Sequence record: OP870144.1
Reading direction: 5' to 3' (one strand)
DNA: 64,000 nucleotides
DNA from: Escherichia phage vB_Eco_F25
The number at the start of each line of letters is the position of its first letter. Within the stretch, counting starts at the first letter, position 1. Made by a program: the position numbers and the translations under genes. The notes beneath the pieces were generated by a model. It made no database searches, was not told where the DNA came from, and saw only the letters and a program-made list of their open reading frames with translations. Below are positions 15,559 to 57,045 of the stretch, piece by piece.

Positions 15559-15602
15559 ATAATTCTCGCGGCTTTTAAGTCGTCGTTTAAATAAACGAGC
15601 TA

Positions 15603-16121
15603 TTAATAACCTCGGTCTTGACGAGCGAAGTTTTCAGCATTTTTCAGATAATAAAGTTTAAAGATTTCTTCAGCCGTAAGACCAAGACCTTGGAACATGT
15701 TCAGAACGAAATGAAGAATATCAATCATTTCGAATTTAATTTCCAACTGGTCTTGTGGAGACAAATCAGTAATCAGAGTTTCACGACGTTCACCATGTTG
15801 AGCTTTCCAAGGCTTCCATACAGCAGATGCATCTTTTTCGCCATTGCTCATACCGCCAAGAGATGTCAGAAGTTCACGGAATTCATCGTCAATATAATCT
15901 TTCTGATTACGTAGCCAATCAACAACTTCACCAGCAGTAGCCAAATCATCAGGATGACGGTTATATTCAGGTTTATCTTTAGCTAAACGAACTTGCAGAG
16001 ATTTTTGCATATCAAGCATAACTTGCAGCGGGTCTTTTTCATCACCGAGAATATCCCAGTATTCATTTTGAGCTTTATCAGCGCCTTCGATCAATTGTGA
16101 ACATTCATTAAAGTATGCCAT
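15603..16121 (-). CDS. 56: dCTP pyrophosphatase (dCTPase/dUTPase)
   Basis: ATG at 16119-16121 (MAYFNECSQLIEG...) with AAAGGAAA Shine-Dalgarno; about 172 aa like T4 gp56; track ORF extends upstream from a non-ATG codon. Confidence 0.88.
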   Translation of the reverse strand: MAYFNECSQLIEGADKAQNEYWDILGDEKDPLQVMLDMQKSLQVRLAKDKPEYNRHPDDLATAGEVVDWLRNQKDYIDDEFRELLTSLGGMSNGEKDASAVWKPWKAQHGERRETLITDLSPQDQLEIKFEMIDILHFVLNMFQGLGLTAEEIFKLYYLKNAENFARQDRGY

Positions 16122-16192
16122 TATTTTTCCTTTCAATTCATGGATTAGTAGATTAATTATACAATAAATATATAAAGCAATAAGGAGGACAT

Positions 16193-16393
16193 ATGGTACA
16201 AAAATTAATGGCACTTGTTAATGCCATCAAAGGTAATAAAAAACGTATAGCTTTTACTATTTCTGCTATGATAGGAATTTTACTTTGGAATTTTGTTTTA
16301 TCACCAGTTGCTATTGCTCATGGCGTTAGTATTCCAGTAATTACTCTTGATACATTCGTGGATTTAGCATTTGCTTTAGTTGGGTTAATTTAA
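16193..16393 (+). CDS. Putative small membrane protein, plus strand
   Basis: 66-aa ORF exactly filling the gene 56-gene 61 gap; AGGAGG 4 nt before ATG; two hydrophobic segments. Confidence 0.4.
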   Translation: MVQKLMALVNAIKGNKKRIAFTISAMIGILLWNFVLSPVAIAHGVSIPVITLDTFVDLAFALVGLI

Positions 16394-17418
16394 ATCTTAG
16401 CATATTTAGATAGCCGCATTTTAGCCATCAACCCTTGGGCAATATTATTTTTCATATATTCCATAATTTGTTCAGGGGTTGCACCTTCCTTTCTAATCAT
16501 ATCATTAACATCTTTTGATTTCCAGGGAGATTTGTCCCAAAACATAACCCTTTCTCCTGCATCAACTAATTTAGTCATTCGTTTAATAGTGTCAGGGTGA
16601 CGAGGTTCATTATCTAAAACCCATACACGTCTATCTTTAAATGGAACAATTTCTAGGTCTAATTGACCGCCTGTAATAGCTATACCATTTTCAATAAAAA
16701 GCGAATCTATAGGTCCTTCTAGAACATATACATCGCCATCTTTAACCCGTTCAACACCATAAATTTTTGTTGCCTCAGGATAAGCTTTGATGGTGATATA
16801 TTTTTGGGGAGCATCTTTCTTTAATGCACGTCCCTGAAAAGACTCAGCTTTTCCATTAGCATTATAAATTGGAATAACAAGACGAGGCTCAGGTATTTCC
16901 TTTTTATATGTTCCTGGTGCTATACTATTAACTAATTTAGGCCATTCAGTTGTAAACCAAAGATATTTCCATTTATCCTTTGGAATACAACGAGCTTTTA
17001 CGTATTTTATAATTGGATGGTCTTCCGCCAGTTTATCTAATCTAATGCATGACGGAAGAGATTTAATTATTTTCTTCTCAGGTTGTTTAGGAAGTTCTTT
17101 AGGTTTTTCTACTGGACGACTTTTACCTTTTTCTTTTCTTATTTCAAAGATATACTCACGATATAAATCAGGTTCAAACTCCTTTAAATATATTCCGATT
17201 GGTGCATGATAGTTACAGTTATAACAATGAATATTTCCTTCATTATTATCACCATAATACCATCCACGGGCTTTATTTTGGTCGGTTTTTGAATCTCCAC
17301 AAACAGGACATCTAAACCGTAATTTAAAAGTTGAACTATTATTTACTTGTGCGAATTTAGGTAAATGAGCTAGCGCACGATATGCAAACTCATTATCAAT
17401 CCAAGGTATTGATGACAT
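16390..17418 (-). CDS. 61: DNA primase
   Basis: 342 aa (same as T4 gp61); zinc ribbon CPVCGDSK...CYNC and TOPRIM region. Confidence 0.95.
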   Translation of the reverse strand: MSSIPWIDNEFAYRALAHLPKFAQVNNSSTFKLRFRCPVCGDSKTDQNKARGWYYGDNNEGNIHCYNCNYHAPIGIYLKEFEPDLYREYIFEIRKEKGKSRPVEKPKELPKQPEKKIIKSLPSCIRLDKLAEDHPIIKYVKARCIPKDKWKYLWFTTEWPKLVNSIAPGTYKKEIPEPRLVIPIYNANGKAESFQGRALKKDAPQKYITIKAYPEATKIYGVERVKDGDVYVLEGPIDSLFIENGIAITGGQLDLEIVPFKDRRVWVLDNEPRHPDTIKRMTKLVDAGERVMFWDKSPWKSKDVNDMIRKEGATPEQIMEYMKNNIAQGLMAKMRLSKYAKI

Positions 17419-17420
17419 TT

Positions 17421-17585
17421 TTACTCTTCTTTTTCTTTAGATTCCTCTTTTTTCTTTTTAGGAATCTGTTCAGGACCTTTATTTACTACAGCGCCTGACG
17501 TTGTTCCAGTAGAGATATTTTCAGGATTACCACCTGAATCTCCAGCTACCATATCTTCTTTAATAAATTCTTTATATGTTTTCAT
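17421..17585 (-). CDS. 61.1: 61.1-like small protein (54 aa)
   Basis: Hand-translated MKTYKEFIKEDMVAGDSGGNPENISTGTTSGAVVNKGPEQIPKKKEESKEKEE; stop 3 nt before the gene 61 ATG; below ORF-track cut-off. Confidence 0.5.
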   Translation of the reverse strand: MKTYKEFIKEDMVAGDSGGNPENISTGTTSGAVVNKGPEQIPKKKKEESKEKEE

Positions 17586-17586
17586 A

Positions 17587-18213
17587 TTAACCTCTATTCA
17601 TAAAAGCATTAAAAATTTGGTCATCAATAGAAACTTTTACTTTAAACTGTTTTTCCGATGGTAATTCATATCCGCATATTACAATTTTGTGATCAATATC
17701 AAAATACACAGAAGCAATATGATTAATGATGTTTTCAGTAAAGTCTAAATCAACATCAATATCTTTTTGACCACAACCCAAAGGATAAATAATGCGAGTA
17801 ATTCGATTATCTTTAACAAAGATTCCACCAATATACTCTGTGCTGCGTTTAAAGTCTACGCGCCGCCGAAATGAAAAATATTCAGGCTCTTTATGAGCTC
17901 GGCTCATAGGACACAACGAGTAACTAGAGTAAGAGATGTCAAATCCTACGCCTTCGATATGAGCCAAAGTGTCACGATTAAACCAATTATAATCGTACGC
18001 CAAGTCCATTAGATTATAATATGTAAAAGGCACCGGATTAACATCACTAGTCACAAGCACGTAATTAGCAACTGCTATAATTTCATTATTTTTAACAAAT
18101 ACAAATCTTGATTGATGCGAATGACCTGGACCTGCGTTTTCACGATTAATGATATAACACTGGGCACCTTTATATTTGTACGTGTCTTTGCACTTGTGCA
18201 TTTGATAAAGCAT
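17587..18213 (-). CDS. 61.2: 61.2-like protein (position of anti-DarT factor AdfA in RB69)
   Basis: 208 aa in the 61.1-61.2-sp order; identity by synteny and size only. Confidence 0.45.
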   Translation of the reverse strand: MLYQMHKCKDTYKYKGAQCYIINRENAGPGHSHQSRFVFVKNNEIIAVANYVLVTSDVNPVPFTYYNLMDLAYDYNWFNRDTLAHIEGVGFDISYSSYSLCPMSRAHKEPEYFSFRRRVDFKRSTEYIGGIFVKDNRITRIIYPLGCGQKDIDVDLDFTENIINHIASVYFDIDHKIVICGYELPSEKQFKVKVSIDDQIFNAFMNRG

Positions 18214-18506
18214 TATTCACCTACCACTTCAGCGATGATATTTTTATTATTGAAGTTTTTATCGCAATACAGAACATAATTATACTGCATTACACCACCA
18301 GACTTAAGCTGTTTTTGTACTTTAGCTTTCATTTCAGGGCGATCACGCTCAACGATATTCATAATATCTGCTTCAATCTGAGTTTCAACCTCAGTCTGAT
18401 CTGCAGTCATAGACCATTCGCACAAATCTTTATCATAACCTGCCATAGCAGGCTGAGCAGCGCAAGAAGCTAAAGCAAAAATTGCAGCAAAAACAAATTT
18501 TTTCAT
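18213..18506 (-). CDS. sp: Spackle periplasmic protein
   Basis: 97 aa; MKKFVFAAIFALASCAAQPAMAGYDKDLCEWSMTADQTEVETQIEADIMNIV near-identical to T4 Sp. Confidence 0.92.
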   Translation of the reverse strand: MKKFVFAAIFALASCAAQPAMAGYDKDLCEWSMTADQTEVETQIEADIMNIVERDRPEMKAKVQKQLKSGGVMQYNYVLYCDKNFNNKNIIAEVVGE

Positions 18507-18563
18507 GATAATCTCCTCAGTAGTTTATGTTTATATAGTATCTCAATTTCTAACAAAAGTAAA

Positions 18564-18818
18564 CTATTTTATTTCCTCAAGTTCGTTAATCAATAAAAGT
18601 TCTCTGACGCTAAAAACAAAGAAAAATGTGTTCCCATCAACCAGAGCATGACCGCTAATAGAACACCCTCTGCGGAATTTAGAAACTTCACAATCTAGAA
18701 CTGTAAAGGGTTTTAATCCTATGACTTTAGCTGTGCGTCTATTCAGTTCACAACCACTTGCGAATTTTTCCAAATCTTCTTCTGATTTAAACTGATATTC
18801 TCTATTAACTAGCATCAT
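18564..18818 (-). CDS. Hypothetical protein
   Basis: 84-aa ORF. Confidence 0.45.
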   Translation of the reverse strand: MMLVNREYQFKSEEDLEKFASGCELNRRTAKVIGLKPFTVLDCEVSKFRRGCSISGHALVDGNTFFFVFSVRELLLINELEEIK

Positions 18819-18881
18819 TTTCTTTTCTCCGCGATTAGCTGATAGAATTACTATAACACAACTCTATCAGCTTGTAAACTA

Positions 18882-19169
18882 CTATTTTACTAGCATCAAT
18901 AACTGTTTCTCTAACTTGACTATTTTACGAAAGTATCTTTTGCATTGGCGAATCTGTCGCTTCGTAGGGCGCACAGCAAACTTAATAAATTCCACTCGAC
19001 CAAATGGAGGACTTTCTTCTGCTGGAATATCTAACACCAATTCCCACGTATCTGCAATAAGTGCTTTGAATTGAGTATTTTTCCTGACGTTATACGGAGT
19101 AGGTTTAAATAAAACCGTATGCATATTACCCTCGCCAATCAGATTCAAAAACTTTTTTATCATTAACAA
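18882..19169 (-). CDS. Hypothetical protein
   Basis: 95-aa ORF. Confidence 0.45.
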   Translation of the reverse strand: MLMIKKFLNLIGEGNMHTVLFKPTPYNVRKNTQFKALIADTWELVLDIPAEESPPFGRVEFIKFAVRPTKRQIRQCKRYFRKIVKLEKQLLMLVK

Positions 19170-55087: not shown

Positions 55088-55254
55088 AATTACATACTCC
55101 TTTGAATAATATCAATAATGTTGTTCACCAGATTATAAGTAAACATTGGGTAATTATATTGAATCATCACATACACAATAAACAAAAATTTCATTCTCTT
55201 CTCCTTGGCAGTTGACAAGGTTATGGTATAGTAATCTTGTCAACTTGTAAACCA

Positions 55255-55428
55255 TTAAATGACGTTTTCAATAAAATTCTGAAGCTTTGTGTGAGCATCA
55301 ACCATGATTTTCATTTCTTCTTTGGCAAAAGCTGTGCCTCTTTCACGAGAAGAACATTCATAGTCAGAAACTGCATTAGCATATTCTTCAATTAGTTTCA
55401 TTAAAAACATCTGCTTTTCAGTTTTCAT
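55255..55428 (-). CDS. Hypothetical small protein (57 aa)
   Basis: Hand-translated MKTEKQMFLMKLIEEYANAVSDYECSSRERGTAFAKEEMKIMVDAHTKLQNFIENVI; below ORF-track cut-off. Confidence 0.35.
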   Translation of the reverse strand: MKTEKQMFLMKLIEEYANAVSDYECSSRERGTAFAKEEMKIMVDAHTKLQNFIENVI

Positions 55429-56787: not shown

Positions 56788-57003
56788 CTACCATTTTTGT
56801 CCTGTATTTACTTTATGCCGATGCACGGCCTTAACTTTATCAAGGTATTTTTCAAAATTTCGCAATCTAGTATAGTCTGCCGGAGATTGGTTGAGTGATA
56901 CTTCTCGACGCAAAGCTGAAATGATATTTCCAACTTCCCTACGAATTTCATCTAATTGAAGCACAGTAAGATTGCGAAGTTGCTTTTCAGTTAATTGTAG
57001 CAT
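56788..57003 (-). CDS. rI.1: rI.1-like protein
   Basis: 71-aa ORF between rI and tk. Confidence 0.5.
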
Positions 57004-57045
57004 ATATACCCCTTTAGTTAGATAAACCTATTTATAACTTTTGCA

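Follow-up and report, generated by a model that had tools for sequence, protein, structure and literature searches.

The antiholin RI of phage T4 has a membrane-anchored N-terminus and a globular periplasmic C-terminal domain of about 70 amino acids, and it is a non-essential regulator of lysis timing. Imm and Sp of T4 are small, non-essential envelope proteins that exclude superinfecting phage. The early and middle transcripts of T4 all have one polarity while late transcripts can have either polarity (PMC2988020). The T4 late promoter sites that have been listed number 50, where 32 carry the perfect TATAAATA and nine carry A at position -13, which is the commonest variant (PMC2988020).

The window analysed in this work is a stretch of 64,000 nucleotides from Escherichia phage vB_Eco_F25 (OP870144.1). 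The subject is a 66-amino-acid ORF on the plus strand of the window (16193-16393) that lies between gene 56 and gene 61. The closest described sequences are dam.1 (T4T, HM137666), RB69ORF029w, VR7ORF033w, and PHROG 2024, which are one and the same sequence family with the same length, position, and strong Shine-Dalgarno sequence. Nothing sets the F25 ORF apart from dam.1, RB69ORF029w, or PHROG 2024, and it is a member of that family. The literature search on the names of the ORF, on dam.1, and on T4 ribosome profiling and transcriptomes found no paper on this gene. The reading that we favour, and consider likely, is that the ORF is a conserved late gene of the dam.1 family that encodes a single-pass membrane protein.

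Results

Geometry and coding evidence of the ORF

The ORF starts with ATG at 16193 and ends with TAA at 16391-16393. The Shine-Dalgarno sequence AGGAGG (16183-16188, plus strand) is separated from the ATG by a 4-nt spacer. The divergent neighbour is gene 56 (dCTPase; 15603-16121, minus strand), which starts at 16121, and the convergent neighbour is gene 61 (DNA primase; 16390-17418, minus strand), which ends at 16390. The gap between both genes is 268 bp. The stop codons of the ORF and gene 61 overlap in the palindrome TTAA (16390-16393), and the same 4-nt stop overlap is found in RB69, JS09, STP4-a, CF1, KLB31, and the metagenomic relative L013. The start and stop codons, product length, Shine-Dalgarno sequence with its spacer, convergent stop overlap, and gap size are all as given in the preliminary description. 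That description also regarded the ORF as the sole plus-strand ORF clear of minus-strand genes. This holds among ORFs with a Shine-Dalgarno sequence but not otherwise, as the ORFs at 83-259 (at the window edge) and 55237-55395 (with a TTG start) are also clear of minus-strand ORFs and have no visible Shine-Dalgarno sequence.

In one metagenomic lineage (L014-L017), the stop codons of the ORF and gene 61 are 7 nt apart. A short GC-rich hairpin (GGGGT-tac-ACCCC) spans this 7-nt gap and the start of the gene 61 3' end in that lineage, with no T-run on either strand.

The probability that a random 66-codon frame is open by chance is about 0.7% when calculated from the composition of the window (GC 0.345). 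The amino acid identity of the ORF product is 23-50% across many genera, and the substitutions are mostly at third codon positions. The dN/dS values are 0.06-0.2 for most within-genus pairs (mostly 0.07-0.2 in Tequatrovirus), with 0.06 for RB69 and JS09. The pair of VR7 and TH40 from Gaprivervirus runs counter to the reading as a gene, with pN/pS of 0.62. In the six-frame control, the ORF's own frame exhibits pN/pS of 0.17 without internal stops, while the other five frames exhibit pN/pS of 0.23-1.55 with two to eight internal stops. The antisense frame with coinciding third positions comes closest (pN/pS 0.23, two stops) and the remaining frames range over 0.47-1.55, so that low pN/pS and an open frame are combined only in the ORF's own frame. 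A strong Shine-Dalgarno sequence (AGGAGG, AAGGAG, or GGAGG) precedes the ORF in all 14 lineages compared.

The open-frame estimate, the conservation across genera, and the frame control together exclude a chance origin of the open frame at the level of sequence comparison, in agreement with the earlier view that such a frame is unlikely by chance. Judged by the same comparisons, the ORF is a genuine protein-coding gene of the dam.1 / RB69ORF029w / PHROG 2024 family.

Taxonomic distribution and synteny of the family

Over 15600-17420, the window matches Escherichia phage vB_EcoM_SP1 (MT682709, Tequatrovirus) at 100% sequence identity, and the SP1 record lists the ORF as a hypothetical protein. 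The F25 protein is also identical to annotated GenBank proteins such as QLF80988.1. The preliminary description had proposed a search of the product against phage proteomes. The product matched PHROG 2024 ("unknown function") with E=1.9e-30, where residues 2-66 align to profile positions 1-65 of 65, and all distant members tested also match this profile. The tblastn search with the product matched 703 phage records, and more were reached through distant members. About 900 phage records list a member of the family as "hypothetical protein".

The profile search of 1.84 billion cluster representatives retrieved nine proteins, where four were new and are distant homologs of 60-68 amino acids from T4-type phages; no member outside T4-type phages was found in that search. 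The contigs of two new members (P0077 and P0080) were fetched, and both carry the gene at the same locus and in the same orientation beside the primase gene. The family was then extended by tblastn with the P0077 and P0080 members and the loci were fetched, which added Jiaodavirus, Gelderlandvirus, Moonvirus, Kanagawavirus, and Dhakavirus to Tequatrovirus, Mosigvirus, and Gaprivervirus. In all eight of these genera the ORF lies beside the primase gene on the opposite strand, and two metagenomic lineages share this position. The IMG/VR scan identified only five close loci. The homologs range from 60 to 69 amino acids, and the ORF is the one opposite-strand gene at every locus examined.

The preliminary description would have been refuted by a lack of conservation in related phages, but the ORF is kept beside the primase gene in at least eight named genera of Tevenvirinae. 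The loci compared show that the ORF has a fixed place beside gene 61, on the opposite strand, in all of the Tevenvirinae with enterobacterial hosts. The Pfam, NCBIfam, and PDB sequence searches with the product gave no meaningful match, and the Foldseek search against viral structure models gave nothing beyond the family itself.

VR7 also has an unannotated second copy of the family in tandem (L004, 2701-2970, plus strand), which resembles the subtype of Bp7 and Q7622 (MGxIFYQI.KL...WN[LF]L[IV]VP). This copy extends 70 nt into gene 61 at the 3' end of the latter, and its acidic motif is lost. The equivalent of this copy in TH40 (L005) has an internal deletion.

Relation of the ORF to dam and to the T4 annotation

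T4 has the same 66-amino-acid ORF with 94% amino acid identity at T4 17738-17938 (plus strand), between dam and gene 61. The reference record NC_000866.4 places dam at 16846-17625 and gene 61 at 17935-18963, and no feature is annotated in the 309-bp gap between them. The T4 sequence of 1984 (X01416) has only a dam promoter annotated in this gap. The T4T record HM137666 gives the ORF the name dam.1, and in a T4 record with automatic annotation it carries the tag phrog 2024. The T4 gene tables of the CRISPRi-ART and HIDEN-SEQ screens go directly from dam to 61 with no entry for the ORF, because the T4 reference annotation lacks it. In a collection of 15 billion proteins, the exact T4 protein is found only in raw-read assemblies, with no NCBI accession listed.

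The alignment of T4 with the window exhibits an 881-bp T4 block that consists of dam and its flanks and has no counterpart in the window. This block is located between the conserved middle promoter of gene 56 and the ORF. The dam gene was found in 184 phage records compared to the 703 that match the ORF. Of the 703, about 500 reach at least 80% identity, the level of Tequatrovirus. The statement in the preliminary description that no dam-like gene is present between genes 56 and 61 is borne out by tblastn with T4 Dam, which gave no match in the window at E<=1. The question whether dam occurs elsewhere was answered with the matching genome vB_EcoM_SP1, where the rest of the genome also gave no match at E<=1. 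No second copy of the ORF was found in SP1.

The preliminary description had further placed the ORF where T4 carries dam, which would make it look like an alternative to dam. This part is not supported, because T4 has both the ORF and dam. The genome comparison indicates that dam is accessory, inserted into a slot of variable content, and that the ORF is not a dam substitute. What stands is the broader proposal that a true gene for a small membrane protein, encoded on the opposite strand, occupies the space between genes 56 and 61 in a phage without dam.

The variable slot (16122-16192 in the window), flanked by the gene 56 promoter and the ORF, is an insertion hot spot. It contains dam in T4, dam and a 546-nt gene in T2, a homing endonuclease in fPS-2, JE01, and IME340, three small ORFs in the metagenomic relative L013, and a mazG-like gene in KLB31. 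In Bp7, a homing endonuclease is located between the ORF and the usual position of the primase gene.

Putative late promoter of the ORF

The box AATAAATA (16163-16170, plus strand) lies 22 nt before the ATG and resembles a late promoter of the gp55 type in the variant with A at -13. Transcription is predicted to start near 16176, which would give a 17-nt leader that carries AGGAGG. In T4, the RNA 5' end is predicted about 6 nt after GATAAATA, near T4 17,72x.

The box before the ORF is NATAAATA in 12 of the 14 lineages and ATTAAATA in the other two, and it is always located 13-22 nt before the ATG. It is kept even as the gene upstream changes (gene 56, dam, or others). A point against the promoter is that the first base of the box is non-consensus in 10 of the 12 lineages with the ATAAATA core. 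The perfect TATAAATA precedes the ORF in Bp7 and Q7622.

The window has nine ATAAATA sites compared to 41.3 +/- 6.5 expected from shuffles, which is a 4.6-fold depletion. Four of the nine sites precede a Shine-Dalgarno sequence with ATG, and these belong to the ORF, soc, gene 49, and a 71-amino-acid ORF. Genome-wide, 23 of 47 ATAAATA sites are located 12-38 nt upstream of a Shine-Dalgarno sequence with ATG, and the 22-nt distance of the ORF box is within this range of late-gene boxes in the same genome. In the same genome, AATAAATA is also the variant found before gene 49 and the holin gene t.

The 71-amino-acid ORF on the minus strand (56788-57003) has a perfect TATAAATA at 57028-57035, 25 nt upstream, which suggests that it may be another late gene in the early region. 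The five ATAAATA sites without a downstream ORF (1092, 5226, 17785, and 61333 on the plus strand; 7610 on the minus strand) could be late antisense promoters.

No late promoter is listed in front of RB69ORF029w by Nolan et al. (2006). The conservation of the box across lineages and the depletion of the motif were judged to outweigh this absence from the list. According to the same study, novel ORFs seem to share their expression with early genes (Nolan et al., 2006), and the A/T-rich ATAAATA could pass for a weak -10 element. Both points would suit a plus-strand promoter of the host sigma-70 type that drives early or middle expression. We consider this highly improbable, as the promoter scan from gene 56 to the ATG identified no sigma-70-like site on the plus strand and the late-promoter spacing of the box is kept across all lineages. 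We strongly infer from the sequence signals that the ORF is a gp55-dependent late gene, because all early and middle transcription of T4 is on the strand of the neighbouring genes and the gp55-type box is located 22 nt upstream.

Opposite-strand signals and antisense reading

The MotA box ATTGCTTTA (16173-16181, minus strand) aligns with the mot-box of X01416 and belongs to the middle promoter of gene 56, which corresponds to T4 P(M)16.53 (oriA). The -10 hexamer TATAAT of this promoter (16156-16161, minus strand) is 11 nt from the MotA box and also has its equivalent in X01416. The late-promoter-like box of the ORF sits inside the spacer between the MotA box and the -10 hexamer, on the other strand.

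A hairpin (16230-16205) followed by a T-run (16204-16195) is located downstream of gene 61 on the minus strand (16195-16230 in total, -10.7 kcal/mol) and resembles an intrinsic terminator. Both elements fall within the first 13 codons of the ORF, where the hairpin covers codons 5-13. The record of fPS-2 has a terminator annotated at the equivalent place. The hairpin is conserved in T4 and T2 and variable in other genera. From its form, the hairpin looks like the terminator of gene 61. No terminator on the plus strand was found within 3 kb downstream of the ORF.

Before late times, the locus would be read only in antisense as the 3' end of the gene 61 mRNA. The early and middle transcripts of gene 61 would end at the hairpin, which would leave nearly the whole ORF covered in antisense. 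With no plus-strand terminator after the ORF, the late transcripts would continue past it and enter gene 61 in antisense. A regulatory effect of this late read-through on gene 61 is speculation.

These signals can also be explained with the ORF as an incidental frame in a region conserved for the gene 61 terminator, the promoters of gene 56 and dam, and a late RNA that is antisense to the primase gene. The terminator-like hairpin inside the ORF, the abutting MotA-box promoter, and the unterminated late transcript that would enter gene 61 in antisense all agree with such an explanation. We find it barely credible. The pairing of low pN/pS with an open frame is particular to the ORF's own frame, and the strong Shine-Dalgarno sequence is present in 14 of 14 lineages. 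Moreover, the ORF, its length, and the motif W-N-x4-P-x5-G-x3-P-x4-[D/E] are kept down to about 25% identity, whereas the nucleotide sequence and the hairpin are not. A protein-coding gene that shares its DNA with opposite-strand signals is the reading that we retain.

Predicted architecture of the protein

The AlphaFold2 model (pLDDT 77, moderate confidence) has helices at residues 2-14, 16-42, and 52-63. Together with the alignment and the Lys/Arg counts, the model divides the protein into three parts. Residues 1-18 (16193-16246, plus strand) form an amphipathic N-terminal helix that ends in the basic cluster KGNKKR and is predicted to be cytoplasmic. Residues 19-42 (16247-16318) form a predicted transmembrane helix with invariant W32 and P38 and near-invariant N33 and A40. 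Residues 43-66 (16319-16390) consist of a turn at invariant G44, P48, acidic D53, and the helix at 52-63, and are predicted to be a periplasmic or interfacial tail.

The alignment of 14 lineages exhibits W32, P38, and G44 as invariant, N33, A40, and P48 in at least 90%, and an acidic residue at position 53 in all 14. The F25 protein has the family motif W-N-[FYL]-x3-P-x5-G-x3-P-x4-[D/E], the basic cluster, and one transmembrane helix. Every lineage has four to six Lys/Arg before a clear membrane span, and the tail has none in Tequatrovirus and none or one elsewhere. Beyond R18 the protein carries neither Lys nor Arg, so trypsin would yield a single hydrophobic peptide of 48 residues; as T4 search databases also lack the ORF, the protein would probably be overlooked in shotgun proteomics. 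The basic cluster places the N-terminus most plausibly in the cytoplasm. For RB69ORF029w, a single transmembrane segment has been predicted at residues 21-41 (Nolan et al., 2006).

The preliminary description had assigned two hydrophobic segments to the product. This is correct for the F25 sequence but does not extend to the family, where the second segment contains prolines and an acidic residue and has an insertion energy of +4 to +13 kcal/mol. The C-terminal 20-28 residues of the family carry prolines (often Pro-Pro) and the conserved acidic residue; their insertion-energy sum, from a crude calculation, is unfavourable, and AlphaFold2 gives a C-terminal helix of just 12 residues. The C-terminal segment of Tequatrovirus is hydrophobic (Kyte-Doolittle 1.87) and the protein ends with ...AFALVGLI. 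The second hydrophobic segment is probably not a second membrane span, and for the tail of Tequatrovirus a two-span hairpin is conceivable. The alignment and the model favour a single-pass inner-membrane protein with its N-terminus inside and a periplasmic or interfacial tail of about 23 residues with the pattern G-x3-P-x4-[D/E]. The invariant W...P face of the transmembrane helix together with the tail would be a layout suited to binding another membrane protein.

Labels given to the homologs

The labels in the sampled records are "hypothetical" in all but two. The label "putative head morphogenesis protein" in the T2 record AP018813 was set aside as a transferred PHASTER label, since the same record puts it on the unrelated gene 61.1. 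The label "Holin" belongs to a single homolog from vB_EcoM_OE5505 (UniRef, BFVD) and was also rejected.

Discussion

Apparent dispensability of the gene

In the transposon screen of Bas37, which is from the same study as the HIDEN-SEQ table of T4, the gene bas37_0144 has insertions at 20 of 24 TA sites and is classed as "Non-essential" (bioRxiv 10.1101/2025.11.20.689424). For three of the six host comparisons in that preprint, supplementary files 3 and 8 give no effect for bas37_0144 (bioRxiv 10.1101/2025.11.20.689424). The gene is a 201-nt plus-strand ORF with a 4-nt overlap with the primase gene. Judged from coordinates and geometry alone, it is the apparent ortholog of the ORF, and it is dispensable under laboratory growth conditions.

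Comparison with known systems

The ORF product is similar to RI in that its N-terminus is predicted to be inside and its C-terminus outside, and in being a small, apparently dispensable, membrane-bound accessory protein of T-even phages. However, its tail has only about 23 amino acids, no sequence similarity to RI was seen, and its locus is different. It is similar to Imm and Sp as a small envelope protein of T-even phages, and sp is located about 2 kb away in the same gene block. However, imm and sp are genes of the early strand whereas the ORF is on the late strand, and no homology was detected.

The similarity to holin T is that of a late membrane protein, and the holin gene t shares the AATAAATA promoter variant. 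In contrast to holin T, class II holins, and pinholins, the ORF product probably has a single span and no charged C-terminal tail. The ORF is also not beside the lysis genes, and its apparent ortholog is non-essential. That the product is a small two-span holin or a pinholin-like lysis protein could be argued from the two hydrophobic segments of the preliminary description, its small size, the late-looking promoter of the same type as that of gene t, the hydrophobic C-terminal segment in Tequatrovirus, and the name "Holin" of the vB_EcoM_OE5505 homolog in UniRef and BFVD. We consider this quite improbable. The canonical holin t, spanins, and endolysin are encoded elsewhere in the genome (SP1), and most lineages have the C-terminal Pro-Pro, the conserved acidic residue, and the unfavourable insertion energy. 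The protein ends in a hydrophobic stretch where holins typically have a charged cytoplasmic tail, the apparent ortholog in Bas37 tolerates insertions as a non-essential gene, and the sampled labels are otherwise "hypothetical" apart from the transferred head-morphogenesis label of T2.

The locus also resembles type I toxin-antitoxin systems, in that a small hydrophobic ORF would be almost wholly overlapped by an antisense RNA, which in this case is the 3'-terminal part of the gene 61 mRNA as far as the hairpin (16230-16205). Unlike in those systems, the antisense RNA would be the tail of an mRNA and not a dedicated small RNA. The host of the locus is furthermore a lytic phage with timed promoters, and there is no evidence of toxicity.

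Possible function

For the single-pass membrane protein that we favour, our tentative guess is an accessory role in modulating an envelope process late in infection, with lysis timing, lysis inhibition, and exclusion of superinfecting phage as the most likely candidates. A more specific proposal, which we consider unlikely, is that the dam.1 family is an unrecognised late inner-membrane component of envelope control in T-even phages, again for one of these three processes. Its conserved transmembrane face and periplasmic tail would then act on a membrane protein of the host or on the phage proteins holin T, RI, or the spanins, and its unterminated late transcript would perhaps silence the primase gene in antisense.

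Significance of the conserved locus

The ORF is an already catalogued gene and represents neither a new kind of element nor a substitute for dam. T4 is the reference phage, yet this conserved gene is absent from NC_000866. The ORF is the only plausible late-strand gene in the 64-kb early region, and its place is kept in at least eight named genera. The retention of this place across the genera indicates that selection holds a small membrane protein there, and perhaps also the convergent transcription with the primase gene.
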